From positions 253,134 to 317,133 of the forward strand of contig CAUQXC010000002.1 of NCBI GenBank assembly GCA_963522175.1: a stretch of 64,000 nt of DNA. Direction: 5' to 3'. This DNA is from an uncultured Lachnospiraceae bacterium. GTDB taxonomy: Bacteria > Bacillota > Clostridia > Lachnospirales > Lachnospiraceae. Position 1 is the stretch's first letter. Each line of letters starts with the position of its first letter. Both the position numbers and the translations under genes were made by a program. The notes under the pieces were generated by a model that did not search any database, was not told the DNA's origin, and was given only the letters and a program-made list of their open reading frames with translations. Below are positions 1 to 13,038 of the stretch, piece after piece.

Positions 1-527
1 TTTACAAGCTCGCCCATATCTTTTCTAAGACTTTCGTCAAGCCCCGAAAAAGGCTCGTCAAGAAGTAAAACCTTTGGTTTTGCGGCAAGAGCTCTTGCGA
101 GAGCCACCCTTTGCATCTGTCCGCCGGAAAGCTCACTTATCTTTCTTTTTTCTAAACCCGAAAGTTTTACCTGTTCGAGTAAAAGCTTAACCTCCTCATC
201 TATCCTGCTCTTTTCAAATTTTCGAAGTTTCATCGGAAAAGCTATATTTTGCTCTACATTCATATTCGGAAAAAGCCTTAAATCCTGAAAGACTATTATG
301 GTATCCCTTTTTTCAGGTGCAAGTCCTACAATGCTTTTATTATCTATGCATATATCACCGCTTTTAGGCTCTACAAGACCGGCTACTGTCTTTATCAAAG
401 TAGTTTTTCCGCAACCGCTTTTCCCGAGAACCGAGACAAATTCACCCGATTTAATTTCCAAATTAAGGTCCTTAAGTACGTGATTTGTACCCAGACACAC
501 GTTCAAAGCCTGTATTTTCAAATTCAT
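1..527 (-). CDS. ABC transporter ATP-binding protein (partial; C-terminus lies beyond the window edge)
   Basis: Absent from the ORF track because it runs off the edge. My minus-strand translation from the ATG at 527 reads MNLKIQALNVCLGTNHVLKDLNLEIKSGEFVSVLGKSGCGKTTL (Walker A), then ELSGGQMQRVALARALAAKPKVLLLDEPFSGLD (ABC signature and Walker B). It starts 9 nt after the permease stop at 537. Confidence 0.9.
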   Translation of the reverse strand, partial: MNLKIQALNVCLGTNHVLKDLNLEIKSGEFVSVLGKSGCGKTTLIKTVAGLVEPKSGDICIDNKSIVGLAPEKRDTIIVFQDLRLFPNMNVEQNIAFPMKLRKFEKSRIDEEVKLLLEQVKLSGLEKRKISELSGGQMQRVALARALAAKPKVLLLDEPFSGLDESLRKDMGELV

Positions 528-536
528 AAGCACCTC

Positions 537-1346
537 TTAGACAAAATATTCAATCTTATTTCCCTTTGTATAGTACCGTGCCAAGGTATCGAAAACAAGA
601 AAAACACCTATGGTTATCACAAGAAAAATCACGGCATATATGCTTGCAAAATTTCTTTCCCCGCTTTGCATATAAGGTACCATTACAACGGAAAAGGTCT
701 TTACGTTTCCGCCGCCTATAAGCAAAGTCAAAAAATACTGACTTATGGAAATGATATACGACATTGTAAAAGCCGACAAAACCACAGGAGTCATATTAGG
801 CAGGCTCACAAGGAAAAAAGCCTTTAATGCACTTGCACCCAGAACTCTTGCCTGCTCTTCAAGCCCCTTTCCCAAGGCTCTCGTCCCTTCTTCTATAAGC
901 TTATTGGTATAAGGCAGGGAATATATTATATGGCATATAATAACACCGATAACACTGCCTCCCAAGCCTATTCTTAAAAATAATATCTGTACTCCCATAG
1001 CAAATACCGTTGTAGGTACTAAAAAAGGACTCAGCATCATAAATGAAATAAAAGTTTTAAACTTAAAATCATAGAAAACGAAAGCCCTTGCGCTCAATAT
1101 GGCAATGATAACGCAACAAAACGAAACCACACAGGATATAAAAATGCTGAGTAAAAATGTATTAAATAAATCCTTACTCTTAAATACTATACTGTTAAAT
1201 GCCCTTAATGAAAATTTATTCGGAATCAAATTGGGCCATGTATACCTCTCCGTAAGCATCCAAATAAATAAAGTTAGTAAAGGTAATACAACTATAGCGG
1301 CAAATAAAACCAAAATCACTCTGCCGAAAATCTTATTTTTTTTCAC
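537..1346 (-). CDS. ABC transporter permease (binding-protein-dependent inner membrane component)
   Basis: 269 aa polytopic protein with an EAA-type loop, LIEEGTRALGKGLEEQARVLGASALKAFFLVSLP. It sits between the ATPase gene and a second permease gene. Confidence 0.85.
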   Translation of the reverse strand: MKKNKIFGRVILVLFAAIVVLPLLTLFIWMLTERYTWPNLIPNKFSLRAFNSIVFKSKDLFNTFLLSIFISCVVSFCCVIIAILSARAFVFYDFKFKTFISFMMLSPFLVPTTVFAMGVQILFLRIGLGGSVIGVIICHIIYSLPYTNKLIEEGTRALGKGLEEQARVLGASALKAFFLVSLPNMTPVVLSAFTMSYIISISQYFLTLLIGGGNVKTFSVVMVPYMQSGERNFASIYAVIFLVITIGVFLVFDTLARYYTKGNKIEYFV

Positions 1347-1407
1347 CGTTTCTCCCTCACTGCTGTTTTATAATAATAGTTTTTTATCTGCGTGTCGGCT
1401 CCCGGTC

Positions 1408-2262
1408 TCATTCGGTACTTTCTCTTTTTTTGATTAAAATAAAGTATATTACACTTGCCGCAAGCGATATAAAAATCAAGATTCCGTTATATGCCATGGC
1501 ATAAGGACGCAGCCTTAAATCCGGCTTTTGAAACTCCTGATAAGCTAAAATAGGCAGAGCTTTGGGAATTGTGGCACCCATTAACACGGGAAGCTCATAC
1601 GCCCCTAATGAATAGGCAAAAATTATCAAAAATGCACTCATAACCGTATTGAAGCACAGGGGCAGAGTTATGGTGAAAAATGTTCTCATTTTGCCTGCTC
1701 CGAGATTTGTAGCCGCCTCCCCGAGTCTTTTGCTTATGGAAGACATCAAAGCTATCACAAAATACACAATAAAAGGCACTTCCTTCCACAGATAAGCCAA
1801 AATAACGCCTACTCCGAACTTATCATAGACCAGAACGGGAAACTGACTTTGGTCATTGATAAAACCGAAGTGATAGCACAAACGTGCAAGCAAACCGTTG
1901 GCTGAAATAATATTGATAAAAACAAGAGCAACTATAACATGGGGAACCAAAATAGGAATTTTGGTTACAAGCAGCATAAATCCCTTGTCTTTACCGTACA
2001 AAATCATTAAGTATGCCAAAAATACCCCTATAACCACAGAAATCACGGACGAGAGGAACGAAATTTTTAAACTGTATAAAATTGAACTTAGTGTATCCGG
2101 TCTTGCAAAAATCTCAAGATAATATTTAAAATCGGGTTTATATAAGCCAAAAATCGGAATCACACCGAAGCTCCATGTGATTCCGATTATTATACCTATG
2201 AAAAATATCGCACCTACAACCAACTGCGGTAACAGTAATAAATAAGGTGTTAAACGTTTCAT
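1408..2262 (-). CDS. ABC transporter permease
   Basis: 284 aa polytopic protein with the EAA-type loop RLGEAATNLGAGKMRTFFTITLP. It is the paralogous partner of the 537-1346 permease. Confidence 0.85.
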   Translation of the reverse strand: MKRLTPYLLLLPQLVVGAIFFIGIIIGITWSFGVIPIFGLYKPDFKYYLEIFARPDTLSSILYSLKISFLSSVISVVIGVFLAYLMILYGKDKGFMLLVTKIPILVPHVIVALVFINIISANGLLARLCYHFGFINDQSQFPVLVYDKFGVGVILAYLWKEVPFIVYFVIALMSSISKRLGEAATNLGAGKMRTFFTITLPLCFNTVMSAFLIIFAYSLGAYELPVLMGATIPKALPILAYQEFQKPDLRLRPYAMAYNGILIFISLAASVIYFILIKKRESTE

Positions 2263-2274
2263 TTTAATTTCCTT

Positions 2275-3009
2275 TTATTTTTCTTTACTCGCAACCACCA
2301 AAATCGATACTCCGAAAGGTAAGTTCATAAATCTTATCAAGGCTTTTTCAAATCTCAGGACCTCCGTAAGCACCTTGTTACTGAAGCCTTCATTAGCCAT
2401 AGAAAGATTATTCGACTTTATATGAAACAAATTAGAGAAAAATCTTACGGCAAATACGGCAGGGAATAAAAAAGTATTGAAATACGTAGCCTTCCTTACC
2501 TTAAATCCTGCTTTTTTAAGCTTAACAACAAGCTCCTTCATGCTATACCTTCTGTAATGCATATTTATCTCGTCGTGCTCACTCCATAAAAACCAAAATG
2601 CCGGAACTGTTATAACAAGCTTTCCTTTGTCCGTAAGCATTTCACGAAAAAGCTTTAAGGTTCCCTCATCATCCTTTATATGCTCTATAACGTCAAGAGC
2701 CGTAATAAGGTCGAATTTTGTATTTTCAAAAGGACGCTCATCCGGAAGCATGGCTTTTTGAACCTTGACATTCTTGGTATTTACAAGGTGCTCAAGGGCA
2801 TAATCCGAATTCTCCACCGCAAATACTTTTCCGAACTTTTTTAAATCATTCAATATGAAACCGCAGCCGGCTCCAATATCAATGATATTGTTGGATTTTG
2901 AAGGCGAAATTATCTTTTTTATCTGCTCAAGAACTATTTCCTTTCTCCCAATATACCACCAATGCGTCCTTTGGTTTTCTTCTATTTGTTCATACATTTC
3001 TTTTTTCAT
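2275..3009 (-). CDS. Class I SAM-dependent methyltransferase
   Basis: 244 aa. Motif I is IIDIGAGCGF, followed by an acidic residue (FAVENS) and motif-II-like DLITALDVIEH. An N-terminal HWWYIGR block is present. No TM segments or signal peptide. Confidence 0.8.
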   Translation of the reverse strand: MKKEMYEQIEENQRTHWWYIGRKEIVLEQIKKIISPSKSNNIIDIGAGCGFILNDLKKFGKVFAVENSDYALEHLVNTKNVKVQKAMLPDERPFENTKFDLITALDVIEHIKDDEGTLKLFREMLTDKGKLVITVPAFWFLWSEHDEINMHYRRYSMKELVVKLKKAGFKVRKATYFNTFLFPAVFAVRFFSNLFHIKSNNLSMANEGFSNKVLTEVLRFEKALIRFMNLPFGVSILVVASKEK

Positions 3010-3103
3010 AGTTTTACTCTCCTATTCACTTAAAAGGCTTACCCTATAATTATAATATAATTCTATTCCAAGCAAGCCTTATACGTCAAGTCAATTTGAA
3101 GAG

Positions 3104-4396
3104 TTATTTACCTAAAACCTCTTCAGCCCATATCTCTTCAATAATAGGCACCAAACCTGCCGGCATTTCAGGTAATCTCTTTTCAAGAAGCTCCTTCTGA
3201 GAAATAACACCCTTTCCTATATCAACGGAATCAAAAAGTGCTTTCTGCTCATCACTCAGCTTCTCGTAAGAAACAACAGGTATGGTTCTTAAGGTTTTAT
3301 GTCTTTCAGCCTGAACCTCAGGTGACATCATTTCGTTAATGGCTACCTGTGCCGCAGCTTTATTTCCGGAATTTCCCGCTATTGCAATATAGTTGGTGTT
3401 TCCTATTGTACCCTTGTCAAACTGGAAGCTTCTTGTTGTCTCGCTGAAGGTTCCGTCCTCTATGTTTGCCGCAACTCCGAAAGCCGCATAGGACATTCCC
3501 ATGACAAGCTCTCCGTCAGCATACATATTTCTCATGGTAGGCTCTTTTTCAGGAAAGGTCTTTCCTTCGTTCCAGAGATATGGATTAAGCTCTCTCAAAT
3601 ACTCAAGTGCAGGCTCAATAGCTTCCTTAACCTTTTCCTTATCCTCAGGCATATCGGCAAACTGCTCATATCCCACTATATCGTAAATGATATTTCTTAC
3701 AAATGCGGAACCTGTAAAGTCGGGAAGTGCCGGATATGTAACCTTTCCCTTGTATTTCTTTGCAAATTCAAGCAATTCTTCAGTATTTTTAGGTGTTTCC
3801 GGTGTAATTGCACTGTCATTATACATAACAAGCTGTGCCTTTCCGTAAGGCGCCTCATAGCCTTCAATAGGAAAACCGAAGTCAAAGTTTACTTCTCTTT
3901 CACTTGTGTCTATATACTTTTCAAAGTTAGGTAAGCTCTCGGCAAACGGTCCGTAAAGGAAATTGTTTTCTTTTGCACTCTTAAAGTTCTCACCGTTAAT
4001 CCAAATCATGTCTATGTCACCGTTTTCTTTTCCGGCGCTCGCTTCACCCGAAAGCTGGCTCATTATAGCCTCTATATCCATGCCTACTCTTTTAAGCTTA
4101 ATATCATACTTTTCTTTTAAATGTTCGGCATAATATCCGTCTATCCAAGTATTAAGCCTGTCGTCTCCGCCCCACATGTAAAATGTAAGCTCCGTACCTC
4201 TTGCTTCCTCAACAAGCTTATCAAAATCGGAAGTTCCCGCCGCTACCTGCTCCGCACTCTTTTCGGCTGTTGTTTCTCCCGCTTTTTCAGTAGCTGCGGC
4301 TGTACTTTGAGGCGCATCTGCCGCCTTTGAACAAGCCGCTCCCGTAAATAAAAGCGTACCGAGGGCTAAACCGAGTAATAATTTGTTCTTCATCAT
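3104..4396 (-). CDS. ABC transporter substrate-binding lipoprotein (possibly YnjB-like; family not verified)
   Basis: 430 aa. Signal peptide with lipobox LFTGAC, then an A/T/E-rich linker and a large soluble domain (LTFYMWGGDDRLNTWIDGYY...). It lies in an operon with two permeases and an ATPase. Confidence 0.75.
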   Translation of the reverse strand: MMKNKLLLGLALGTLLFTGAACSKAADAPQSTAAATEKAGETTAEKSAEQVAAGTSDFDKLVEEARGTELTFYMWGGDDRLNTWIDGYYAEHLKEKYDIKLKRVGMDIEAIMSQLSGEASAGKENGDIDMIWINGENFKSAKENNFLYGPFAESLPNFEKYIDTSEREVNFDFGFPIEGYEAPYGKAQLVMYNDSAITPETPKNTEELLEFAKKYKGKVTYPALPDFTGSAFVRNIIYDIVGYEQFADMPEDKEKVKEAIEPALEYLRELNPYLWNEGKTFPEKEPTMRNMYADGELVMGMSYAAFGVAANIEDGTFSETTRSFQFDKGTIGNTNYIAIAGNSGNKAAAQVAINEMMSPEVQAERHKTLRTIPVVSYEKLSDEQKALFDSVDIGKGVISQKELLEKRLPEMPAGLVPIIEEIWAEEVLGK

Positions 4397-4402
4397 TTTC
4401 TC

Positions 4403-5098
4403 CTATTTCTTCTTTGTCTTCTCAATATACACCTGTCTTGCAAGCATTATAAGAAATGACAGACCGAACAATATCAAAAGTCCCGTAACCATTATCTTTG
4501 CTCCTCCCGTGAGGAAACCGCCCACATAGGAGTAAACCAAGGTTGCCGGTAACTGCCCTATGCCCGTGGCTATAAAAAAGCTTGTAAACGACATTGATGT
4601 AAGTCCTGCGGCATAGCTTACTATATCGAAGGACACGAAAGGCAAAAGCCTTGCTATAAGCACACTCATATTACCGTGCTTTTCAAAAAATTCATCTATA
4701 TTCTTCATACCGGATTTGCTTGTGAGCTTTTCCGCCACGTCTCGTCCCAAAATCCTTGCTATATAAAAACAAAGAGCGGCTCCCGCCATTGCACTTGACC
4801 ATGAAAGAATTGCTCCCTGCCACCAGCCGAATAAATTTGCATTTGCAAATGTTATAAGAAAGGCAGGCAAGGGAGCAACTACAGACTGTAAAATCATCAG
4901 TAAAAACGAAACTATGGCTGCATATACTCCGTAAGATGCGACAAAATCCTTAACCACTTGGAAATCTCCCGTGGCAAACATTGAAAAGATGTTATTTATA
5001 AGCTTATTGACAGCCGGAACACATACATACACCGAAAAGCAAAGCAAAAGAGCCAGTATAAGATATATTTTCTTTATTAAACTCCTATTTTTGCTCAT
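4403..5098 (-). CDS. TVP38/TMEM64 (SNARE-associated, DedA-related) family membrane protein
   Basis: 231 aa, multiple TM segments. Core block is VVAPLPAFLITFANANLFGWWQGAILSWSSAMAGAALCFYIARILGRD, typical of the YdjX/YdjZ-type family. Confidence 0.75.
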   Translation of the reverse strand: MSKNRSLIKKIYLILALLLCFSVYVCVPAVNKLINNIFSMFATGDFQVVKDFVASYGVYAAIVSFLLMILQSVVAPLPAFLITFANANLFGWWQGAILSWSSAMAGAALCFYIARILGRDVAEKLTSKSGMKNIDEFFEKHGNMSVLIARLLPFVSFDIVSYAAGLTSMSFTSFFIATGIGQLPATLVYSYVGGFLTGGAKIMVTGLLILFGLSFLIMLARQVYIEKTKKK

Positions 5099-5106
5099 AA
5101 TTCGTT

Positions 5107-5871
5107 TTAGTTAAACTTATACTCCATTTCTTTTGTTCCGTCCAAGGTATTCCATACATTTGTATAGCCTTTGTCAGCTATATAAGCTGCCGCCTTTGCG
5201 GAACGGTTACCCGAGTAGCAATGTGTTATGATAAGAGTATCCTTATCCTCAGGAAGCCGGCTGTCCAAGGTTGAAAGGTCTTCCACATTAACATTAATCG
5301 CATTTGCAAAATGCTCCTTATCATAATCCTTTGCCTCTCTTGCATCCACTATGAAGGCTTCATCTTTCTTTGCCATAAGCTCTTCACCCGTTATGTTACC
5401 GTACTTAACAAGCTTATACTCATACTGCTTTACTCCGTCAGCATTTGTAACATCCTTAAAGCCGTTTTCTACAAGTATATCTGCCGCCTCTCCTGATTTC
5501 TTTCCGGAGTTGCAATATAAAATAACGCTCTTATCCTTCCATGCGTCAAGCTTGCTTATATTATCTTTAAATGTGTCTATAGGCATATTGATTGCAAATT
5601 TAACATGACCCTCGGCATACTCTTCAGGGCTTCTTACGTCAACTACCATAACACCCTCTTTTTTCTCCTTGTCGTCCTCTATAGCCTGTAAATCCGCACC
5701 TGCCATAGTTTTAACCGCAGACTTTTCGCTCGCTTCATTCCCTGACTGAGCCTCGGTTCCACCCGCCTGAGCCTTAGTTTCATTTGAAGCCGTCTGACCT
5801 GAGCAAGCTGTAGAAATTGCCAATGCTCCTATCACTCCGATGCCTAATAAAACTTTTTTGAATTTTTTCAT
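5107..5871 (-). CDS. Exported tandem-rhodanese lipoprotein (sulfurtransferase-like)
   Basis: 254 aa. Lipobox AISTAC. Two rhodanese modules each carry a candidate catalytic Cys loop: LYCNSGKKSGEAA and HCYSGNRSAKAA. Confidence 0.8.
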   Translation of the reverse strand: MKKFKKVLLGIGVIGALAISTACSGQTASNETKAQAGGTEAQSGNEASEKSAVKTMAGADLQAIEDDKEKKEGVMVVDVRSPEEYAEGHVKFAINMPIDTFKDNISKLDAWKDKSVILYCNSGKKSGEAADILVENGFKDVTNADGVKQYEYKLVKYGNITGEELMAKKDEAFIVDAREAKDYDKEHFANAINVNVEDLSTLDSRLPEDKDTLIITHCYSGNRSAKAAAYIADKGYTNVWNTLDGTKEMEYKFN

Positions 5872-5987
5872 TACAACTAACCTCCATGTTGTTTATATTT
5901 TTTTTATCAATCAGCAAAATTTTAACACATTTTCCTTTATTTTTCTAATTGATTATTTCTATTGCTTATAGTCCATATAGCTAAAAT

Positions 5988-7010
5988 CTATACTTCATCT
6001 TCGTAAAGTATATCCTCGATGCTTTTAATAAAATCACCACTTAAATAAGCATTAAGTTTACGTCTTGTACTTTCATTGCGTAAATTTTTACTTTCATCGA
6101 GATACTCCGTATATGCCATGGCACACCATGTCAAGCCTCGTATACAGTTTATTTTTATAAAGGTATAGGTACTTTCTCTTATTTTCGAAGTGTCAAATCT
6201 GTTATTTACTGCTTTTATATACTCATCTATGAAAATATCAAACTCTCTTTTCTGAAGTATCACATCCGTTTTCCAAAATGTTGTCGTAGGTGCAAGGAAA
6301 TGTCCGAGATCCTGAGCCGGCAAACCGAATATAGGCTTTTCCCAGTCTATAAGATAACTTTGCAAACAGCCTTCCCCAGTCAAAAAATTGCTCGAATTAA
6401 GCTCTGTATTTACTATACATTTATACAAGCCCTTTAAATTTTTGTCTACATTTTTTTCTATCTCCCTCGCCTTATACAAAAGCTTTTCAAGTCTTCGTTT
6501 TATGTCCTCCGAAGCCCTGTCGTTATACGTATATACCTTAAGCATGCTTTCGCACTCGTCAAGTATGAAGCCTATATCGTTTTCGCTTTGTATAAGCCCG
6601 CTTCCGTCAAGTTTGAGGCTGTGAATATCCGCAAGAATGTGAGCCGCTTTTAAAATATCCTTCTTATAGTCAAGAGGTCTTCCTTTAAGGTAATCCATAA
6701 CCAGAATGCCTTTATCTATATACTTTTTTGAGCTGTCCGTATAATAAACCTTCGGCGTTCTCCCTGTTTTCCGAAGCTTCGACAAAGCATAGGCTTCATA
6801 TTCTATCTGATTTTCAAGCTTCATTTGAGAACCGTAGTTTATTCTCAAAACAAGCTTTTTATTCCATACGGGATGTCTGAAAACATAGTTCAAATTGTAC
6901 TCTCCCGCAGCTAAAAACCTGTATTTTTCCTCAACTTTTTCGGGAAGAGACAGGGCCTTCCTGTATTCTTTACTTTTTACCAAATTTGAAATCTGTTCTT
7001 CATTTACCAT
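5988..7010 (-). CDS. Phosphotransferase (APH/choline-kinase-like) family protein with an atypical catalytic loop
   Basis: 340 aa. It has the kinase-fold C-lobe pattern IVNTELNSSNFL ... YLIDWEKPIFGLPAQDLGHFL. The IDWE block matches the metal-binding D of the APH/ChoK fold. Its start ATG overlaps the upstream stop (TAATG). Confidence 0.6.
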   Translation of the reverse strand: MVNEEQISNLVKSKEYRKALSLPEKVEEKYRFLAAGEYNLNYVFRHPVWNKKLVLRINYGSQMKLENQIEYEAYALSKLRKTGRTPKVYYTDSSKKYIDKGILVMDYLKGRPLDYKKDILKAAHILADIHSLKLDGSGLIQSENDIGFILDECESMLKVYTYNDRASEDIKRRLEKLLYKAREIEKNVDKNLKGLYKCIVNTELNSSNFLTGEGCLQSYLIDWEKPIFGLPAQDLGHFLAPTTTFWKTDVILQKREFDIFIDEYIKAVNNRFDTSKIRESTYTFIKINCIRGLTWCAMAYTEYLDESKNLRNESTRRKLNAYLSGDFIKSIEDILYEDEV

Positions 7011-8371
7011 TATCTCACATCCTTGTATAAGTTTGCCAAAACATCAATATCTATGCCGTCTCTGTACATTTTTCTGAGTCTGTTCATCTTCCACATAAGT
7101 TTGAGCTTATCGTATACATTACCTTTAAATCTTCTGTCGCTCGTATATATCCTGTTTCTTGTCATGCCGAAGCGTATCCCCGCTTCCTTCAAATTCAAAG
7201 AAAATTTATAGTCCTCCATTAAAGGGAGATCCGGAAAAGCTCCCGCTTCAAAAAACAGATCTCTTTCAAGGAATATTCCTTGGTCTCCGAACATAACTCC
7301 CCTGTCAAAAACCCTGCTGTTGCTTATAAGCCTGCATATAAACATAAGTGGCGAAAGAGATTTAAAGGCTATACCGAAGCAACCGGCTCTACGTCTTGAC
7401 ATGACCTCTCTTATCTGTGAAAGAGGTTTATCCGGTAAAATACTGTCGCTGTGAAGGAAAAAAAGCACATCCGCCTTTGTACTCAAAGCACCCGTATTCA
7501 TCTGTTTGCTTCTGCCTTTTTCCGAAAAAATAAGCTTAAGCCTTTTATCAATCAGCTTTCTTGTGTTATCCGTACTTCCTCCGTCAACAAGTATTATCTC
7601 GCACTTGTCATTAAGCTTTAAAAGCTGTTTTTGCAAGGCTTCTATGGTTTTTTCCTCATTGTAGACCGGGACTATTATCGCTATACTCATTGTTTTTATA
7701 AGATACTTTCCGGTATGACTTTTTCTGAATTTACGAGATTTCCTAAGTCTGTCTCTGTAATAAATAATATCCTCTTTTGTGTCTATATCTCTGAATGTTC
7801 TCAAAAAACTTATATTCTTATTTTGTGCCTTTATTTTATTCACTGTGCCTTCAAATACGCTTTCATCCCCGAATTTTTCCAGATTAAAGACCTCTCTGTC
7901 GGGCTTTTTCATACCTATAAGACAGTAACCGCCGTCTGCCGCCTTGCCCAGAACATAATCCTTATACCTTAAGTTTATAAAAGCGCTTTTTATGTCCGCA
8001 GCCCTAAGCTCGGGAATGTCGCTCCCCGTCAAAACAAGAAATTTGTAGCCCTTTTTGTATACCTCTTCTATTGCGGTATACATCTTTTCTCCTATATCCT
8101 TTCCTTCCTGTCTCAGGTACGAAACCCTTTCTCCGAAAATATTCTTAAGCCTCAAAAAAGCCTTTCTTACCGCTTCCTCATTTACCCCCTTCGGCACGTC
8201 ATAATAAAGAAACACTTTCACATCTTTAAGTTTTCCTATTTCCTCCGACATATCTTTAAGCATGGAAAGATGTAAGCCTACACACTTTTTCTCATCAAAA
8301 TAAGGCATAAGCCTTGTCTTTGTGTGCCGGTTTACAGGTAACCTGCTGAAAATAATAAGTGCTTTATCCAC
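7010..8371 (-). CDS. Fusion protein: DUF2064 (TIGR04282-like) domain + family-2 glycosyltransferase (TIGR04283-like) domain
   Basis: 453 aa. The N-terminal half begins ALIIFSRLPVNRHTKTRLMPYF (DUF2064 signature xxIFaKxPxxGxVKTRL). The C-terminal half has IAIIVPVYNEEKTI...EIILVDGGSTDNT...GRSKQMNTGA...FLHSDS (GT2). GTG start preceded by AAGGAG at 7-nt spacing. Confidence 0.75.
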   Translation of the reverse strand: MDKALIIFSRLPVNRHTKTRLMPYFDEKKCVGLHLSMLKDMSEEIGKLKDVKVFLYYDVPKGVNEEAVRKAFLRLKNIFGERVSYLRQEGKDIGEKMYTAIEEVYKKGYKFLVLTGSDIPELRAADIKSAFINLRYKDYVLGKAADGGYCLIGMKKPDREVFNLEKFGDESVFEGTVNKIKAQNKNISFLRTFRDIDTKEDIIYYRDRLRKSRKFRKSHTGKYLIKTMSIAIIVPVYNEEKTIEALQKQLLKLNDKCEIILVDGGSTDNTRKLIDKRLKLIFSEKGRSKQMNTGALSTKADVLFFLHSDSILPDKPLSQIREVMSRRRAGCFGIAFKSLSPLMFICRLISNSRVFDRGVMFGDQGIFLERDLFFEAGAFPDLPLMEDYKFSLNLKEAGIRFGMTRNRIYTSDRRFKGNVYDKLKLMWKMNRLRKMYRDGIDIDVLANLYKDVR

Positions 8372-8382
8372 AAAATAACTCC

Positions 8383-9357
8383 TTAAATAAACTTGGTTTT
8401 TGCTCTGTTAATCCACGAATTTTTAACATCCGGTTTTTCATTTGTTCCCAATATCAGTGGCAAGAAATGCAATACATTGTCACAGCCCTGTCTGTTAAAA
8501 TTTCCCGCACAGGTTCCGCAATACGTAACTATCTTATCATGCCCCTGCGCTTTAAGCTTTTTCGGCATATCAAGGGCAAGCTGCCTTTCCTTTACTATGG
8601 CACAGCCGCCCAAACCGCAGCACTGTACATTCTTAACAAAATCAGTTTTTGCATTTATAAAAGGAGCCACATATTCCATCCATTTTTTATTTTCCCTGTC
8701 CGGACAAGGCAAAAAAATATCCGCAGTGAAATCTATCTTATTCCCTATTCCAAGCTCGGTAAGCTTTTCATATATGGTGGTAATTTTAACATTCAGTCTG
8801 TCTCCGAAATGATAAAAACAGTTAGGACAAACCAGAACAAATTCCTTTATACCGTTTTTTTCTATAAATTTATTTATTTTATCTATTATCTCATTTTCTT
8901 CCTTTACAAGCCCCAGCTCTGCTATAGGCTTTCCGCAACAGTCATAAGCCGTGTCTATGTTTTGCTTTTCCTTAAGTAAAGCCGAAATATACCTCATGGT
9001 TTCAGGAAAAAATGAGGGAAAATTACAGCCCGGGAAAAGTATACTTTCCGATTTCGCCTTTGAATAATTCTTAAAAATATAATTTTTCTTTTCAAGAAGC
9101 AAAGGAGCATAGCCCTTTTGTTTTAAGGAATAGCCTCCCTCTTTTACCTCGTCCGTTCTCATGTCAAAAATAATCTGTCTTCCGTCTATATCCTTGGGAC
9201 ATACTCTTGTACACTCACCGCACAAAAAACAATGATATGCCAGATCCTTAAGCTTGTCTACATCACCTATGGTCAAATTGTACTTTGTGAGAAATGAGCA
9301 ATGTTTTGTACAAAGTTTACAATTTATGCACTTTGTAAAATCGGTATGTTTATTCAT
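8383..9357 (-). CDS. (Fe-S)-binding CCG-domain oxidoreductase subunit (HdrD/GlpC/LutA-like)
   Basis: Two ferredoxin-type clusters (CINCKLCTKHC and CFLCGECTRVCP) and two CCG motifs (YDCCGKP, VQCCGLGGC). Start trimmed to MNKHTDF (ATG at 9357), since the longer ORF-track start would run far into the upstream gene. Confidence 0.75.
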   Translation of the reverse strand: MNKHTDFTKCINCKLCTKHCSFLTKYNLTIGDVDKLKDLAYHCFLCGECTRVCPKDIDGRQIIFDMRTDEVKEGGYSLKQKGYAPLLLEKKNYIFKNYSKAKSESILFPGCNFPSFFPETMRYISALLKEKQNIDTAYDCCGKPIAELGLVKEENEIIDKINKFIEKNGIKEFVLVCPNCFYHFGDRLNVKITTIYEKLTELGIGNKIDFTADIFLPCPDRENKKWMEYVAPFINAKTDFVKNVQCCGLGGCAIVKERQLALDMPKKLKAQGHDKIVTYCGTCAGNFNRQGCDNVLHFLPLILGTNEKPDVKNSWINRAKTKFI

Positions 9358-10039
9358 TTGAAATTTCCTTATCCACCTTATACTTTTTAAACAAAAACGC
9401 GAGCAAAAACACCAAAACCGCAAGCCCCACAGCTAAACTCACATACAGAGTTCTGTTTGTTTTATCGACCACAGCCGCCGCTCCTATGGTATACATAGCC
9501 GTCCCCGGCAAAATAAATATAAAAGTAAACACGGAATATGTCGAAAGTCTCATATCCGTTACTCCATAGGCAAAATTCTGTAAATTAAAGGGAAACAGAG
9601 GGACAAGGCGGGTTATCATCAAGATAAAAATTTCATTTTTCTTCATATCTTCAAAAAGATATTTCTTTAAATACTTATTTTTCATAGCCAAAGGCTTAAT
9701 CCTGTCCTGCAAAAAATATCTTCCGCTTATAAATGCAAGTACCGCTCCTATGCTTGCGGCAAGCGTACATAAGAAAGTTCCGTAAAACGCTCCGAACAGC
9801 ATTCCCGCAGCTATTGCAAAGCTTATTCCCGGTAAAGCGAGGACCACACTTCCCACCACAGTTGCCGCTACGTATATAAGACTTGCGAGTAAAATATTGT
9901 CATCAACCGAACTTTTCATTTTCTTAAGCTCTTCCACACTTAAATAGCTTGAAAAATCAAACATTTTATTAAGTATTATTATAACAATTATAGCCGTCAC
10001 GAAAATGATAAGCTTGATATTTTTATTTTTCTTTTCCAT
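9350..10039 (-). CDS. TVP38/TMEM64 family membrane protein (second copy)
   Basis: 229 aa. Core block VVLALPGISFAIAAGMLFGAFYGTFLCTLAASIGAVLAFISGRYFLQD is paralogous to 4403-5098. It overlaps both neighbouring genes. Confidence 0.75.
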   Translation of the reverse strand: MEKKNKNIKLIIFVTAIIVIIILNKMFDFSSYLSVEELKKMKSSVDDNILLASLIYVAATVVGSVVLALPGISFAIAAGMLFGAFYGTFLCTLAASIGAVLAFISGRYFLQDRIKPLAMKNKYLKKYLFEDMKKNEIFILMITRLVPLFPFNLQNFAYGVTDMRLSTYSVFTFIFILPGTAMYTIGAAAVVDKTNRTLYVSLAVGLAVLVFLLAFLFKKYKVDKEISNE

Positions 10040-10454
10040 CTATCCCCCAAAATGCCAAAGCAAGTGACAAAATCTGTCTAATCAAAAGTATGCTTAAAAC
10101 TATCAAACAAGCATAGTAATCTCTACGCTTATCTATATTAAAAACGAAAAAATATATACCTGTAAATACCGCATAGATGAAAAGCAAAATTGTCTCTGCC
10201 AATACACCTTTATTTCTTATATACTTTTTATACAAAGTAAAAGCGATAAAAAATATACTTAAAAGCACAAGGAGCAAACAGACAAGACTTACCACAGGTA
10301 CCGAAAATATACTGGCATTTTTTATTTTTCTTCCGAGATAGACCATATATCTTGCCATTCCCATTTTTTTATTTGTGAAATACATGATGGCTATAAAGGC
10401 AAGCCAAAAAATGAGATGTAAGATTTCTATAATTATTTTTAAAACTTTTTTCAT
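10023..10454 (-). CDS. Small polytopic membrane protein, unknown function
   Basis: 143 aa with about 4 hydrophobic helices and no motif I recognise. It overlaps the downstream TVP38 gene by 17 nt, which suggests translational coupling. Confidence 0.6.
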   Translation of the reverse strand: MKKVLKIIIEILHLIFWLAFIAIMYFTNKKMGMARYMVYLGRKIKNASIFSVPVVSLVCLLLVLLSIFFIAFTLYKKYIRNKGVLAETILLFIYAVFTGIYFFVFNIDKRRDYYACLIVLSILLIRQILSLALAFWGIDGKEK

Positions 10455-10505
10455 TTCCTTCTTTCCTAAAAAAGAGTTCCTAAAAGGAACTCTTTTGATA
10501 AATTT

Positions 10506-11633
10506 TTATTTCTTAGCCTTGTCCGTACTTAAGTCGGAAACCTTAACTTCTTTGTAATCCGCACTTCCCGGCTCTCCGAGCTGAACAGGGTTTTCACCGT
10601 CCATCTGCCACTGGAACCAACCGCCGTCGTAAAGATATACGTTCTTTAAGCCGTTTTCGTAAGCAATAAGGAAAGGTACGCTTGCTCTCCAGCCCGTTCC
10701 GCAGTAAACTGCCAAACTGTTATCCTTTGTTGAAGCACCCGATTCTGCCAAATACTTGTCAAATGTATCAAGACCTACTATAGTTCCGTCAGGGTTGTTG
10801 TAAGACTTGTCATCCGTATCATGTCCCCAGATAGCTCCTAAAGGCTCTCCCGCTCTGTCGATGTAACCGTATCCCGATGTTTTTCCCAAAAATTCATCCT
10901 TAGCTCTGATGCTTACAAGCTTAAACTTAGGGTCGGAAGCGAGCTTTTCCTTAACCTCATCTATACTGAGTATGTACTCAGGATGTGCCGGAACTTTTAC
11001 TCCGAAGTCCTTATCGGTAGCCACAGGCTTGTTTACCTTAGACTCGGTTTCATAACCCGCCTTTGTCCAAGCATCTATACCGCCGCTTAAATTCTTCACA
11101 TTCTCAACACCTGCCCAAAGAAGTGTAAGAGCAAGTCTGTCATCCGCAGTGATTTCAGGAGTATTTCCGTAGGTGATAACAGTAGTATCCTTTGTTATTC
11201 CGTAAGACTTCATCAAAGCTTCTATTTCTTCCGGAGTTCTTATATTCCAAAATTCATCAGACTCTATATCGTCCGTATTCACATGAAATGCGCCCGGAAT
11301 ATGTGCTTTAGTGTAAAATTCGTCATCCTCAATCTTACCCCATGCAGCCTCGAGAACGACAAAATCTTTTGATTCCTCCTGCTCTCCGTCCATAACCGAT
11401 TTAACCCAATCAGGCCCCACATATACCTTGGTTTTTTCTTCTTTTGCAACTTCTTTCTTGTCCTCTGCCCCGGTTTCCTCAGTCTCCTTGCTTTCGCTTG
11501 TCTCCTTAGCTTCGCTTACCTCCTCGGTTTCACTTGCCGCCTGAGTTCCAGTGTTTGAAGCTCCCGCACAGGCACTGAGTAAAAGAGCTGCCACAGCGGT
11601 ACAGGCAAAAATTGAATAAACAGATTTTTTCAT
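10506..11633 (-). CDS. Exported two-domain rhodanese lipoprotein (thiosulfate/3-mercaptopyruvate sulfurtransferase-like)
   Basis: 375 aa. Lipobox LLSAC, then an E/T/K-rich linker. The N-terminal rhodanese domain appears inactive; the C-terminal domain carries the active-site loop YCGTGWRAS. Confidence 0.8.
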   Translation of the reverse strand: MKKSVYSIFACTAVAALLLSACAGASNTGTQAASETEEVSEAKETSESKETEETGAEDKKEVAKEEKTKVYVGPDWVKSVMDGEQEESKDFVVLEAAWGKIEDDEFYTKAHIPGAFHVNTDDIESDEFWNIRTPEEIEALMKSYGITKDTTVITYGNTPEITADDRLALTLLWAGVENVKNLSGGIDAWTKAGYETESKVNKPVATDKDFGVKVPAHPEYILSIDEVKEKLASDPKFKLVSIRAKDEFLGKTSGYGYIDRAGEPLGAIWGHDTDDKSYNNPDGTIVGLDTFDKYLAESGASTKDNSLAVYCGTGWRASVPFLIAYENGLKNVYLYDGGWFQWQMDGENPVQLGEPGSADYKEVKVSDLSTDKAKK

Positions 11634-11825
11634 AAGTTTTATTTTGCTACAAAAATATAACTTTCCTCCTATTTTTTATAAATACGTATCAGTTATTTAT
11701 ACTGTATTCTGAAAGAAAAGTAAAATAGTTAATATCTATCAAAGACTTATGTTATAGATTAAATCTATGGCTTTGCTTGAGATTGGATGTTTTAATTTTA
11801 TCCCTCTCTTCCATTCCCACCCTGA

Positions 11826-12578
11826 CTAATACTCCTCTACCCTTTCAATTATACTTATCTCTTCTCCGTTTTTCGTATAGCCGCTAATTGTAATACTCGC
11901 ATAAATTTTAGCCCCATTTTCTTCCATCCTACTTAGATAATCGTTTAACTCAATATCCAATTTATCTCCATCAGCTATATCAAAATATGAATTTAAATTT
12001 TTATCGCTTAATTCATAATCTATACTTATCTCACCGGTGTTCTCCGAATAACTTGTACTCGTAGCTTTATATCCTTTCAAGCTTTCCTCTCTTAAATCCA
12101 TGTATTGAAATACAAATTTCATATTTTTCATCCAATCTTCCACTTTTCTTCCGTCTACAGCATATATTCCCTTCTCCTCACTATAGGCGACCTCAAATGT
12201 TTCTACAAGTTTATCACTTTCACCCTCAATATATTTGATTTTTTCATATACGCCTCTTATTTCCTTCTTATTTGCATCAATTTTAAGTTCCAACTCATGA
12301 GAAATAATATCTCCCTCTTTCACATCAGTTTTCCAATGATACATCTCTCCTCCGTTCGGCAGTTTATCAAATATGTCACTTACCTTTTCGGTCGGATATA
12401 TTTTTCCCATATTACTGAAATGGGGTTCTATAACCGCTCTTCTTCGTGTTATGTAAAAGTATATACCAAGCGCAAGTATAAAAAACACTGTTACAGTTAC
12501 TATTATTGCACAGTAAATACAAACTATTTTCAGTAGTAGGCTTACAAGCGGGGGTAATTTTATTTTTTTTATTTTCAC
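11826..12578 (-). CDS. Membrane-anchored protein of unknown function, paralogue 1 of 3
   Basis: 250 aa with one N-terminal TM helix. It shares the blocks IYPTE, LPNGGE and EVAYSEEKGIYAVDGRKVEDWMKNMKFVFQY with 13039-13776 and 13902-14651. Confidence 0.7.
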   Translation of the reverse strand: MKIKKIKLPPLVSLLLKIVCIYCAIIVTVTVFFILALGIYFYITRRRAVIEPHFSNMGKIYPTEKVSDIFDKLPNGGEMYHWKTDVKEGDIISHELELKIDANKKEIRGVYEKIKYIEGESDKLVETFEVAYSEEKGIYAVDGRKVEDWMKNMKFVFQYMDLREESLKGYKATSTSYSENTGEISIDYELSDKNLNSYFDIADGDKLDIELNDYLSRMEENGAKIYASITISGYTKNGEEISIIERVEEY

Positions 12579-12660
12579 TTCTATAATCTCCTCGTATAAT
12601 ATATTTTAGATGCATGAATGCATATGAAAAACCAAATAAATATTTGTTCAATAGGCTTGG

Positions 12661-13038
12661 TTAAACCCAAGATATAATTCCCACTATTGGGGCTATATTC
12701 CCTCCCAAAGAGTGTCCTGTAAGTATAATTTCCTCTCCATATTTTTTTGATATTTTTTCATAAAAGCCGCAAGCACTTTTTTTTCTTTTTGTCTCCGGTA
12801 AATATTTTCATATCTGAAGCTATGTCTTTCATAAGTTCATTAAAGCCGCCACCCGGATTTGTCCCTGCAAAGCCCATAATTATTTTATCGGACTTCTTAT
12901 CCTTATTATCCGGTACCACCCCTACAGGCTTGAAAGCATTTTTAATAAGGTCTTCAATACCTTTATATTTATAAGGGTGTATATACATATCTTCTATTTC
13001 ATAAGCAATTCTTGATACATATAATGTTTCTACCTTTT
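12661..13038 (-). pseudogene. Lipase class 3 / DUF2974-like alpha/beta hydrolase remnant (frameshifted, truncated at both ends)
   Basis: The ORF-track fragment 12758-12988 reads ...KIIMGFAGTNPGGG...DMKIFTGDKKKKK and stops. A 1-nt shift at the A-run continues it as SACGFYEKISKKYGEEIILTGHSLGGNIAPIVGIISWV*. That gives the lipase_3 pattern (xFxGT, then the GHSLGG nucleophile elbow) but no downstream Asp/His. The upstream in-frame extension (KKVETLYVSRIAYEIED) has no start codon. Confidence 0.6.

Follow-up and report, generated by a model that had tools for sequence, protein, structure and literature searches.

A conserved gene block of anaerobic Bacillota that merges an E. coli-type envelope module with the downstream half of an ArsS cassette, and its possible role in nucleoside salvage

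Described systems with shared parts, and layout of the locus

The gene block described here shares parts with an Escherichia coli K-12 locus and with the ArsS cassettes of arsenosugar biosynthesis. FNR directly activates E. coli ydjXYZ-ynjABCD and ynjE (PMC3688515), which fits a function in anaerobes. The YnjE protein has poor sulfurtransferase activity with both thiosulfate and 3-mercaptopyruvate (PMC10215317). In vitro, ArsS adenosylates DMAs(III) to 5'-deoxy-5'-dimethylarsinoyladenosine (PMC13598754). A published proposal for arsenosugar lipids includes a nucleosidase step (PMC10456119), and an arsenosugar is thiolated by enteric bacteria (PMC6656958). The downstream half of an ArsS cassette consists of a TIGR04282 nucleotidyltransferase, a TIGR04283 glycosyltransferase and a TVP38 protein with a reductase. 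A search of the literature found no paper describing the ensemble reported here.

In the window (the whole 64-kb stretch of Lachnospiraceae DNA analysed), 13 genes run from position 11633 to base 1, all on the minus strand. The ORF list and the gene calls of the source contig agree on this, and domain searches returned the stated domains, as the original prediction of 13 co-directional genes and their domains had it. The junctions that it gave were reproduced from the gene coordinates: overlaps of 17 nt (10023-10039), 8 nt (9350-9357, if the CCG gene is taken to begin with the ATG at 9357) and 1 nt (7010), alongside gaps of at most 116 nt, the widest at 5872-5987. The features are:

1..527, minus strand: ATPase of the ABC transporter (PF00005, ABC_tran, 128 bits); the window edge truncates the gene and leaves the N-terminal 175 aa
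537..1346, minus strand: ABC permease 2 (PF00528, BPD_transp_1), matching the C-terminal half of E. coli YnjC
1408..2262, minus strand: ABC permease 1 (PF00528, BPD_transp_1), matching the N-terminal half of YnjC
2275..3009, minus strand: class I SAM methyltransferase (Methyltransf_23, 57 bits), between the SBP and permease genes
3104..4396, minus strand: substrate-binding protein (SBP), exported, lipobox GAAC, YnjB family (NF008633/PRK11622)
4403..5098, minus strand: VTT/DedA (TVP38-type) membrane protein VTT_a, YdjZ orthologue (PF09335, VTT_dom, 104 bits)
5107..5871, minus strand: tandem single-domain rhodanese, exported, with PspE/GlpE-like loops CNSGKKS and CYSGNRS (PF00581, two domains)
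5988..7010, minus strand: kinase-like protein of choline-kinase/APH fold with altered catalytic loop INTELNSTN (APH, 47.7 bits)
7010..8371, minus strand: fusion of a DUF2064/CofC-like nucleotidyltransferase and a GT2 glycosyltransferase (TIGR04282 and TIGR04283)
8383..9357, minus strand: soluble HdrD/GlpC-like Fe-S protein, putative disulfide-type reductase (Pfam CCG and Fer4 families)
9350..10039, minus strand: VTT/DedA (TVP38-type) membrane protein VTT_b, YdjX-like (PF09335, 76.8 bits); 8-nt overlap with the Fe-S gene
10023..10454, minus strand: small polytopic membrane protein without family assignment
10470..10496, no strand assigned: predicted terminator-like hairpin with a perfect 11-bp stem and a T-run, separating the first rhodanese gene from the one that follows
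10506..11633, minus strand: two-domain rhodanese, exported, lipobox LSAC, YnjE-like (PF00581, two domains)

The whole block comprises about 14 genes. On the source contig, the sequence beyond the window edge completes the ATPase gene (full-length product, 341 aa) and adds to the block, after a gap of 1 nt, a gene for an IU-type nucleoside hydrolase. An aldo-keto reductase gene downstream of the block is not conserved in related loci. Because the hairpin comes after the first gene, the block probably has more than one transcript.

By BLASTP, six cluster products matched E. coli K-12 YdjZ, YdjX, YnjB, YnjC, YnjD and YnjE, which upheld the suspected link to the ydj/ynj locus. Along its whole length VTT_a shares 53% identity with YdjZ (E = 9e-89); the two-domain rhodanese shares 40% with YnjE across 292 aa (E = 9e-69) and has the same active-site loop, CGTGWRAS. 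Identities were 36% for the ATPase (YnjD), 34% for the SBP (YnjB) and 28.5% for VTT_b (YdjX, E = 5e-24). YnjC matched both permeases, permease 1 aligning to its residues 37-266 and permease 2 to residues 237-502. The sole NCBIfam match of the SBP was NF008633/PRK11622 (447.6 bits; cut-off, 203), which we take to be the family of YnjB; neither the SBP nor the permeases fell into an unrelated characterised family. The homologues of the cluster parts are likewise adjacent in E. coli, but there the envelope module (YdjX/YdjZ, YnjBCD and YnjE) occurs without the cytoplasmic enzymes of the cluster. YdjY-like lipoproteins (39% identity, E = 2e-40) were found in four related loci.

The SBP and the two rhodaneses had been proposed to be exported lipoproteins. 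All three have N-terminal signal sequences with a Cys box (GAAC in the SBP, STAC and LSAC in the rhodaneses). The STAC box is non-canonical, yet its Cys is kept in orthologues, and the catalytic loops CNSGK, CYSGN and YCGTGWRA are kept across 43-50 orthologues.

Conservation of the block and of its parts

With the fusion protein as query, we retrieved 80 related loci from other species. The fusion was present in 73, the Fer4-CCG protein in 67, VTT_a, which is very highly conserved, in 66, VTT_b in 64, the kinase-like protein in 62, the YnjE-like rhodanese in 49 (46-49) and the importer in about 32. The core is formed by the two VTT/DedA proteins, the Fer4-CCG protein, the kinase-like protein and the fusion; rhodaneses, a C_GCAxxG_C_C protein and the small membrane protein are frequent extras. 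Many anaerobes of gut and mouth have the conserved block; carriers include Enterocloster clostridioformis, Dorea and Oribacterium sinus DSM 17245. Gene order is shuffled among these loci while the members stay together, and such recurrence across species is more than chance would give. The co-conservation that the original prediction called for is strong. We read the block as a single functional unit, conserved in anaerobic Bacillota, that merges two formerly separate orphan gene sets: the E. coli-type, anaerobically induced envelope module and the downstream half of the ArsS cassette.

The methyltransferase is the exception. Its gene occurs in none of the 80 related loci; it represents an insertion specific to this lineage and does not belong to the conserved cluster, so its inclusion in the system was not borne out. 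Nor is the enzyme ArsM-like: it scored only 15 bits against an ArsM family and gave no BLAST match with the ArsM-like protein found in ArsS cassettes.

The Fe-S protein contains two ferredoxin CxxCxxCxxxC motifs (2x[4Fe-4S]) and two CCG domains, all with conserved Cys motifs, and its alignment with NF045663, a model of 759 positions, spans positions 305-643. In four loci VTT_b and the Fer4-CCG protein are fused in a single ORF of 581 aa. A comparable protein, annotated as a bifunctional TVP38/TMEM64 family protein/FAD-dependent oxidoreductase, adjoins arsS in proteobacteria, and VTT_b is 34% identical to its TVP38 part.

The fusion protein combines the Pfam domains DUF2064 and Glycos_transf_2. 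Its scores exceeded both cut-offs (TIGR04282, 166.4 against 134; TIGR04283, 213.4 against 182), confirming the families named for it earlier. The closest PDB sequence match was 3cgx, a putative nucleotide-diphospho-sugar transferase, and the GT2 motifs VDGGSTD, LFFLHxDS and MFGDQGIF were at least 90% conserved among 81 sequences. In the kinase-like protein the catalytic HxD is replaced by NxE; therefore the protein may use a different kind of substrate or may be no kinase. N201-T-E203...N208, LRINYG and IDWE were invariant in 43 orthologues.

The tandem rhodanese family was present in 41 of the 80 loci, and both catalytic Cys are kept in orthologues; the scores of the window protein lay below cut-off for PspE NF007627 (100.5 bits; 102) and for NF045521, 'rhoda_near_glyco' (92 bits; 145). 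The small membrane protein had no Pfam or NCBIfam match above threshold. Its homologues, found in 36-41 of the 80 loci and mostly between the rhodanese and VTT genes, keep a YFTxxKxGMxR motif.

The original prediction had remarked on the absence of a radical SAM gene. None is present at this locus, but ArsS (TIGR04167, 442 bits; cut-off, 300) and TIGR04169 (202 bits; cut-off, 120) lie inside the cluster in nine related loci, all of which lack the importer. In locus L086 the VTT_b and CCG genes come after ArsS. Among 46 loci with full flanks, importer and hydrolase were present in 23, ArsS and TIGR04169 in 7, neither in 16 and both in none (Fisher p = 0.009, not corrected for phylogeny). For comparison we assembled 80 ArsS cassettes from other phyla. 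Their neighbours included TIGR04282 (40 of 80), TIGR04283 (27), an ArsM-like methyltransferase (22), MtnP (at least 14) and a TVP38-FAD reductase (11). MtnP was absent from all 80 Lachnospiraceae-type loci and the kinase was present in only one of the 80 ArsS loci. 5-Substituted ribose-1-phosphate is made via MtnP or, alternatively, via MtnN and MtnK, and the complementarity of MtnP and the kinase mirrors these alternatives.

Nucleoside salvage and other readings

We tentatively favour, at somewhat short of an even chance, the reading that the cluster is a radical-SAM-less salvage variant of an arsenosugar-type route. As judged from its genes, the cluster probably imports and re-packages an arsenic-bearing (or sulfur- or selenium-bearing) nucleoside. 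The SBP lipoprotein and ABC importer would take up an ArsS-type nucleoside with a 5'-heteroatom substituent (5'-deoxy-5'-dimethylarsinoyl-adenosine or an analogue). The IU-type hydrolase would strip the base, and the kinase-like protein would phosphorylate the resulting 5-substituted ribose. The DUF2064 half of the fusion could then form an NDP-sugar, which the GT2 half might pass to a glycerol-type or lipid acceptor. The TVP38-type DedA pair and the Fer4-CCG reductase may move substrate or product across the membrane with thiol/disulfide-type reduction, and the exported rhodaneses may transfer sulfur at the outer face, for example in an oxo/thio exchange on the heteroatom. We infer every chemical step of this route, as well as the element (S, Se or As). 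Experimental precedent exists for arsenic alone; the substrate may instead be an analogue that carries sulfur or selenium.

The earlier scheme of import, phosphorylation, activation and transfer survives in outline, except for its imported alcohol or sugar. The hydrolase gene lies directly behind the importer in 31 of 32 importer loci (in the 32nd the sequence breaks off inside the ATPase gene; permease 2 accompanies the SBP in all 32), which makes a nucleoside the more likely cargo. Salvage is further supported by the VTT_b-CCG fusion and by locus L088, where an IU-type hydrolase gene lies directly behind ArsS. Several observations speak against it, among them the lack of arsenic genes at the locus and in its flanks that is described below. 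The 16 of 46 full-flank loci noted above have neither source module, and the benefit of importing an arsenical is not evident. The SBP model (AF2, pLDDT 79) is of the PotD/FbpA/PhnS class by Foldseek, with no close liganded relative, and nothing in its fold points to a nucleoside as ligand. The kinase model (AF2, pLDDT 90) is nearest to choline/ethanolamine kinases (TM about 0.6), and MTR kinase was absent from its top 50 Foldseek matches. Finally, the E. coli module indicates that the envelope part can work alone.

That last point suits acquisition of a chalcogen (sulfane sulfur or selenium) without nucleoside or arsenic, a possible reading to which we give clearly less weight than to salvage. 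Here thiosulfate, polysulfide or selenotrisulfide would give up sulfane S/Se to the exported rhodaneses, its import would fall to the DedA pair and/or the YnjBCD-type importer, Fer4-CCG (and C_GCAxxG_C_C) proteins would reduce a carrier disulfide, and the kinase and NT-GT2 enzymes would make a small glycosidic carrier or cofactor. The conserved catalytic Cys of both rhodaneses, one of them PspE-like just below cut-off, agree with this, as do the persulfide-type loop of periplasmic YnjE, the CCG domains typical of heterodisulfide-type reductases, FNR activation of the E. coli operon and the selenoprotein members of the NCBIfam families ArsS, C-GCAxxG-C-C, YciW-related and rhodanese_LYCAU. However, it leaves unexplained the hydrolase behind both importer and ArsS, the ArsS/importer exclusivity and the MtnP/kinase complementarity; YnjE is poor on the two substrates named above, and selD or cys genes do not recur in the flanks of related loci. 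The original prediction, a lic-type decoration of the envelope, now appears unlikely. In this scheme a choline-like (possibly onium) alcohol would enter through the importer, the choline-kinase-like protein would phosphorylate it, the nucleotidyltransferase would activate it, and it would end up on a lipid or wall polymer, with DedA proteins flipping a lipid-linked intermediate. In its favour, LRxxxG and IDWE are choline-kinase-like motifs, CofC and related NTP transferases resemble the nucleotidyltransferase in fold, and the kinase model has the structural matches given above. Lipid scramblases are eukaryotic relatives of TVP38-type DedA proteins, but these COG0398 proteins lack the undecaprenyl-phosphate-binding residues (PMC10127716) and the gene fusion ties VTT to an Fe-S reductase, so that a role in handling lipid-linked intermediates was not supported. 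Moreover, the Pfam Choline_kinase match (E = 3e-6) scores 27.2 bits, below the cut-off of 29, LicB, LicC and LicD homologues are absent, the transferase is a GT2 sugar transferase and no phospho-alcohol transferase, the SBP is of the YnjB family, and the links to nucleoside hydrolase and ArsS go unexplained.

The NCBI family names of the fusion would suggest that the organism detoxifies arsenic by making arsenosugars de novo, which is more improbable still. The fusion does exceed both family cut-offs, and across many phyla TIGR04282/TIGR04283 genes have ArsS and ArsM-like genes as neighbours. At this locus, however, importer and hydrolase occupy their place; no ArsS, TIGR04169 or ArsM was found in the 64-kb window or about 10 kb beyond its left edge, and no ArsM-like gene in the 80 Lachnospiraceae-type loci, so arsenic is not indicated locally. 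ArsR or ars resistance genes, including regulators and efflux genes, were not found nearby or recurrently in the flanks of related loci. Least credible of all is a chance neighbourhood in which stress rhodaneses, a glycosylation pair and a generic importer belong to operons of unrelated function. The hairpin, gaps of 94-116 nt inside the block and the non-conserved methyltransferase and aldo-keto reductase would fit it, but it is contradicted by co-conservation: the genes stay together in about 70 loci of several orders despite many rearrangements, two of them are fused, and homologous parts adjoin in E. coli.

Gene content and surroundings of the cluster

The cluster comprises 13 ORFs, all on the minus strand and running from 11633 to base 1. 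Gene calling on the source contig agreed with the ORF list, and the original prediction of 13 co-directional genes with these junctions was confirmed. Genes overlap by 17 nt (10023-10039), 8 nt (9350-9357) and 1 nt (7010), and the widest gap is 116 nt (5872-5987). Profile searches of the window proteins also recovered all of the domains that had been named beforehand. The features that we refer to are as follows.

13902-14651, 13039-13776 and 11826-12578, minus strand: three tandem paralogues of 249, 245 and 250 aa, between nagA and the cluster
10506-11633, minus strand: YnjE-like rhodanese
10470-10496: perfect 11-bp hairpin followed by a T-run, directly past the stop codon of the YnjE-like rhodanese and ahead of the next ribosome-binding site
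9350-10039, minus strand: YdjX-like DedA (VTT, TVP38-type) protein
8383-9357, minus strand: Fer4-CCG Fe-S protein (CCG protein)
7010-8371, minus strand: fusion of DUF2064 (TIGR04282) and GT2 (TIGR04283)
5988-7010, minus strand: kinase-like protein
4403-5098, minus strand: YdjZ-like DedA (VTT) protein
3104-4396, minus strand: solute-binding protein (SBP) of the importer
2275-3009, minus strand: class I methyltransferase
1408-2262 and 537-1346, minus strand: BPD_transp_1 permeases of the importer
1-527, minus strand: ABC ATPase of the importer, cut by the window edge

The SBP had a sole NCBIfam match, NF008633/PRK11622 (447.6 bits, cut-off 203), which we take to be the YnjB family. Foldseek analysis of an SBP model gave only the broad PotD/FbpA/PhnS class and identified no ligand. 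Signal sequences that end in a Cys are present on the SBP and on each of the two rhodaneses. One rhodanese is of the tandem single-domain type and the other has two domains; the catalytic loops are kept across 43-50 orthologues. Export of the two rhodaneses implies a sulfur transfer on the outside of the membrane. The fusion protein scored above the cut-offs of both TIGR04282 (166.4 versus 134, residues 5-202) and TIGR04283 (213.4 versus 182, residues 230-449), which upheld the predicted link to these arsenosugar families. In the CCG protein, a putative disulfide-type reductase, two ferredoxin 4Fe-4S motifs are followed by two CCG domains, as in HdrD/GlpC-type proteins (Pfam CCG and Fer4), and the Cys motifs are kept in 61 sequences.

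The kinase-like protein has an APH fold, with a sub-threshold match to Pfam PF01633 Choline_kinase (27.2 versus a gathering cut-off of 29). Its AF2 model (pLDDT 90) was closest to choline/ethanolamine kinases in Foldseek (TM ∼ 0.6), and its LRxxxG and IDWE motifs are choline-kinase-like. Within residues 198-210, NTELNSTN replaces the Brenner motif HxDxxxxN. The change from HxD to NxE is invariant in 43 orthologues and is therefore a family trait rather than decay. PDB sequence searches with the kinase-like protein, the SBP, the fusion and the hydrolase described below returned generic or structural-genomics relatives only. We rejected the methyltransferase as a candidate ArsM: it scored only 15 bits to an ArsM family. 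It is also unconserved in related loci.

The context beyond the window was taken from ENA ERZ28634851 scaffold_6 (443 kb). There the cluster runs past the window edge: the ATPase is 341 aa long and is followed after 1 nt by an inosine-uridine (IU) type nucleoside hydrolase of 306 aa. Next come an aldo-keto reductase gene, 23 nt after the hydrolase (L162:12791-13789 on the source contig, past the left edge of the window), then relA, hisS and aspS. The aldo-keto reductase lies near L-glyceraldehyde-3-phosphate reductase (419 bits, cut-off 448). It was found in none of the 80 related loci, and we therefore treat it as outside the unit. On the far side of the cluster the window consists of housekeeping DNA (nagA, a two-component system, metNIQ-like genes, prfC, coaBC and, with ftsZ, the dcw cluster), and neither ars nor sel genes are present. 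An Rfam scan of 1-14000 revealed no riboswitch or leader. Promoter and terminator scans remained at background level except for the hairpin at 10470-10496, ahead of which the YnjE-like rhodanese gene may be separately transcribed or attenuated. The three tandem paralogues share 32-42% mutual identity and each has an N-terminal membrane anchor; they had no family match in our scans, and one carries a DUF576 record on the source contig. Elsewhere in the window, an ABC-3 (Mn/Zn-type) permease is joined to domains of the DtxR-like repressor and FeoA types in a 589-aa product (41631-43400, minus strand). This unusual transporter-regulator fusion adjoins genes for a ZnuA-type SBP and an ATPase.

Conservation of the gene set and its counterpart in E. 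coli

With the fusion protein as query, a scan of a single genome for each GTDB species yielded at least 396 relatives, from which we retained 80 loci. These Lachnospiraceae-type loci come mostly from Lachnospiraceae, with gut (Dorea, Enterocloster, Lacrimispora, Hungatella, Coprococcus, Faecalimonas) and oral carriers (Lachnoanaerobaculum, Catonella, Johnsonella, Oribacterium); Mogibacterium/[Eubacterium] saphenum, Miniphocaeibacter, Synergistaceae and Coriobacteriales are further carriers. The window proteins were compared with the 80 loci by tblastn.

Occurrence of cluster components in the 80 loci
Fusion: 73/80
CCG protein: 67/80
YdjZ-like VTT: 66/80
YdjX-like VTT: 64/80
Kinase-like protein: 62/80
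YnjE-like rhodanese: 49/80
Importer: ∼ 32/80
Methyltransferase: 0/80

The genes recurred together in an order that varied among lineages. That the set is kept together despite the shuffled order argues for functional linkage rather than inherited synteny. The conserved membership needs revision: the methyltransferase, originally listed in the cluster, does not belong to it. Clustering of all ORFs of the 80 loci added a tandem rhodanese family (41/80), a small membrane protein (36-41/80), a C_GCAxxG_C_C protein that is absent from the window (35-38/80) and the nucleoside hydrolase, which follows the ATPase in 31 related loci. No recurrent ars, sel or regulator gene was found within ±10 kb of the 80 loci or in the rest of the window. 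Two loci binned as 'Prevotella sp.' (L013) and 'Akkermansia muciniphila' (L074) contain Lachnospiraceae-like clusters, with 71-73% identity in the YdjZ-like VTT; they are probably mis-binned metagenome contigs.

The proposed link to the E. coli ydj/ynj locus held up in a BLAST comparison of the K-12 region with the window proteins, in which six E. coli proteins were matched.

E. coli K-12 proteins matched in the window
YdjZ: 4403-5098, 53% identity, full length
YdjX: 9350-10039, 28.5% identity
YnjB: SBP, 34% identity
YnjC: both permeases match
YnjD: ATPase, 36% identity
YnjE: 10506-11633, 40% identity over 292 aa, CGTGWRAS loop identical

The best matches between YdjZ/YdjX and the VTT pair were reciprocal, and the homologues of the six proteins are encoded by adjacent, co-directional genes. 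YdjY, YnjA and YnjF had no BLAST match among the window proteins; a YdjY-like lipoprotein is encoded in four related loci (39% identity, E = 2e-40). The kinase, the nucleotidyltransferase-GT2 enzymes, the hydrolase, the Fer4-CCG protein and the tandem rhodanese of PspE-like type are missing from E. coli. A single fused permease there corresponds to the two of the cluster, and YnjE has three domains compared with two in the window rhodanese. FNR is a direct activator of ydjXYZ-ynjABCD and of ynjE in E. coli (PMC3688515). YnjE is periplasmic and has poor activity on thiosulfate and mercaptopyruvate; its substrate is not known (PMC10215317).

ArsS cassettes and a proposed salvage pathway

The radical SAM protein ArsS (TIGR04167, 442 bits, cut-off 300) adjoins an AhpD-like TIGR04169 protein (202 bits, cut-off 120) in 9-10 of the 80 Lachnospiraceae-type loci. 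An AhpD/CMD-family protein thus occurs in this context as well as in E. coli, where it is YnjA. No ArsS homologue was found in the 64-kb window or ∼ 10 kb beyond its left edge, and TIGR04169 is absent from the window. Of the 46 loci whose 10-kb flanks were complete, 23 contained the importer plus hydrolase, 7 contained ArsS plus TIGR04169, 16 contained neither and none contained both; for these 46 loci, uncorrected for phylogeny, the exclusivity of importer and ArsS gave a Fisher p of 0.009.

A second scan, using an ArsS alignment as query, gave 80 loci, mostly from Bacteroidota. In these ArsS loci, TIGR04169 lies next to ArsS in 73 cases and TIGR04282/TIGR04283 homologues are present in ∼ 34-40; hardly any of them encode the Lachnospiraceae-type kinase (1/80), CCG protein or rhodaneses. 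On two annotated plasmids from Proteobacteria, arsS is accompanied by genes for a bifunctional TVP38/TMEM64 family protein/FAD-dependent oxidoreductase, TIGR04283, TIGR04282, mtnP, thioredoxin and CcdA. The methyltransferase of the Acinetobacter plasmid cassette had arsenite methyltransferases as its top NCBIfam matches. When the plasmid cassette proteins were searched back against the 80 ArsS loci, the ArsM-like methyltransferase turned up in 22 loci, DUF547 in 17, MtnP in at least 14 and the TVP38-FAD fusion in 11, often in one co-directional run (for example L152). None of the 80 Lachnospiraceae-type loci encodes MtnP or an ArsM-like protein, and MtnP and the kinase-like protein have complementary distributions across both sets of loci. 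Single loci combine components: a hydrolase of the cluster type comes immediately after ArsS in L088, a YdjX-like VTT and a CCG protein come after ArsS in L086, and the Bacteroidota cassette L142 includes a single-domain rhodanese. In L088, from a Eubacteriales MAG, a 340-aa ORF (L088:8550-9572) lies directly upstream of the TIGR04169-ArsS-hydrolase genes; two small ORFs, possibly for regulators, come before it. The Acinetobacter portensis plasmid pJNE5-X3_NDM-1 (L163), a 333-kb mobilizable plasmid, carries a cassette at 137070-145361 with genes for ArsS, TVP38-FAD oxidoreductase, DUF547, TIGR04283, TIGR04282, ArsM-like methyltransferase, a phosphate transporter and MtnP. It lies beside IS3 and Tn7-like tniQ/tniB genes, which argues that the cassette is mobile.

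The cluster and the ArsS cassette share TIGR04282 and TIGR04283, fused in the window, and a TVP38-type DedA protein paired with a reductase. This reductase is an Fe-S CCG protein in the window but a flavoprotein in the cassette. The window lacks ArsS, TIGR04169, ArsM, MtnP and DUF547. Where MtnP would be, the cluster has a YnjBCD-type importer with an IU hydrolase and a choline-kinase-fold protein; two exported rhodaneses and a second DedA protein come in addition. We class the cluster as a derivative of the arsenosugar cassette that is linked to the YdjXYZ-YnjBCD-YnjE module of E. coli and lacks the steps of the radical SAM enzyme and the methyltransferase. Its replacements are the importer, the hydrolase, the kinase-fold protein, the Fe-S reductase and the exported rhodaneses. 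Experimental support for the canonical arsenosugar cassette covers the ArsS step only, in which dimethylarsenite is adenosylated to 5'-deoxy-5'-dimethylarsinoyladenosine (PMC13598754). A published proposal for arsenosugar-lipid synthesis contains a nucleosidase step (PMC10456119).

The inferred logic common to both is conversion of a 5'-substituted adenosine via a 5-substituted ribose-1-phosphate and an NDP-sugar to a glycoside. In methylthioadenosine salvage, the substrate is processed either by the phosphorylase MtnP or by the nucleosidase MtnN plus the kinase MtnK. Two interchangeable ways from a 5'-substituted adenosine to a 5-substituted ribose-1-phosphate would exist in the cluster and cassettes as well. 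In the cluster, uptake of the nucleoside would fall to the YnjBCD-type importer, behind which the hydrolase is fixed. Base removal would yield the 5-substituted ribose-1-phosphate, for which MtnP would need a single step and hydrolase plus kinase two; that pair would then be functionally equivalent to MtnP. The CofC/MobA-like TIGR04282 domain would make the NDP-sugar, whose sugar would be transferred by the GT2 domain, TIGR04283. For the exported rhodaneses, arsenosugar thiolation is one concrete possibility; enteric bacteria have been seen to thiolate arsenosugar (PMC6656958). The downstream steps, nucleotidyl and glycosyl transfer, differ from the methionine regeneration of methylthioadenosine salvage, and the hydrolase belongs to the IU-NH family and not to MtnN.

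We consider this salvage of a 5'-substituted nucleoside, with its chemistry read from cassette composition, a real possibility that falls somewhat short of probable, because several observations fit it poorly. A kinase making ribose-1-phosphate should resemble MtnK, but the kinase-like protein had no NCBIfam MtnK match and no PDB profile match, and MtnK was outside its Foldseek top 50. The NxE loop, the SBP model with its match to a broad class only, the missing ArsM, the one third of complete loci with neither source module, and E. coli, which retains the envelope module alone, are further misfits. Arsenic itself is suggested by cassette homology and not by local context, since the Lachnospiraceae-type loci have no ArsM-like gene and no recurrent ars regulator. 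Trafficking of a chalcogen, with the conserved loops of the exported rhodaneses in its favor and the lack of recurrent sel genes against it, is an unlikely alternative that we retain. A choline-type pathway was also part of the original prediction. It would share the order of LicA choline kinase, LicC cytidylyltransferase and LicD transferase, and the fold of the kinase-like protein is choline-kinase-like. Unlike the Lic pathway, the cluster has no LicB, LicC or LicD homologue, its transferase is a GT2 and the catalytic loop of its kinase is altered; we regard this pathway as improbable. The more general outline of import, activation and transfer remains plausible, but the likely substrate class needs revision.

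Extending the nucleoside-salvage model, the cluster and E. coli ydjXYZ-ynjABCD/ynjE could belong to a widespread anaerobic 'make or take' pathway. An arsenic or S/Se 5'-deoxyribosyl compound would be built by an ArsS-type enzyme or scavenged from neighbors. A TVP38 flippase, coupled with the Fe-S reductase, would then attach it to an acceptor in the membrane or envelope. This broader proposal is speculative and, in our view, unlikely. If it is true, abundant commensals of the human gut and mouth produce or recycle a glycolipid or cofactor of organo-metalloid or chalcogen type that is so far undescribed. The carriers are common gut and oral Lachnospiraceae of humans (Dorea, Enterocloster, Lacrimispora, Oribacterium, Johnsonella, Lachnoanaerobaculum). 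An organo-arsenical substrate would provide a genetic handle on microbiome processing of dietary arsenosugars, such as thiolation (PMC6656958), and a sulfur or selenium analogue would mean new chemistry. The cluster connects two gene sets without assigned function, the nine-gene FNR-activated E. coli K-12 locus and the TIGR04282/TIGR04283/TVP38 part of the cassette, and suggests one concrete reaction scheme for both.

As had been anticipated, the ensemble is undescribed: literature searches, which also covered DUF2064, ynjB/ydjX, ArsS and TVP38 with rhodanese, returned no experimental or comparative description of it or of TIGR04282/TIGR04283 function, and no experimental papers on these two families. 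Their name, 'arsenosugar biosynthesis glycosyltransferase', rests on gene neighborhood, and caution is warranted where it is given automatically to genomes without ArsS in the locus.

The DedA proteins and their reductase partner

The original prediction made the TVP38 proteins possible handlers of lipid-linked intermediates. This role needs revision, since here they are linked to the reductase by overlap and fusion. An 8-nt overlap connects the YdjX-like VTT gene (9350-10039) with the Fer4-CCG gene, and in four related loci (L012, L018, L022 and L025) the two are fused in a single 581-aa ORF (e.g. L022:8242-9987). The VTT protein of the window shares 34% identity with the TVP38 portion of the TVP38-FAD fusion from Acinetobacter, and such a TVP38-flavoprotein fusion adjoins arsS on both proteobacterial plasmids. 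At the level of gene structure, then, the TVP38 proteins are tied to a predicted reductase by gene overlap, by the 581-aa fusion and by the proteobacterial flavoprotein fusions.

A fusion to pyridine-nucleotide-disulfide oxidoreductase is the commonest one in COG0398 DedA proteins, which have been argued to lack undecaprenyl-phosphate-binding residues and may scramble phospholipids (PMC10127716). Both systems couple a TVP38-type membrane domain to a cytoplasmic disulfide-type reductase; the partner in the cluster, however, is a ferredoxin-type Fe-S CCG protein, separate or fused. The hosts of the cluster are strict anaerobes, whereas the COG0398 subfamily has been described as tied to aerobic metabolism (PMC10127716). 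Each DedA protein has one conserved Cys, and for this reason we did not adopt a DsbD-like electron transfer by the pair. Their cargo may be a lipid product, a small substrate or reducing power. TVP38-type DedA proteins thereby gain a testable partner, an Fe-S reductase joined to them by gene fusion.
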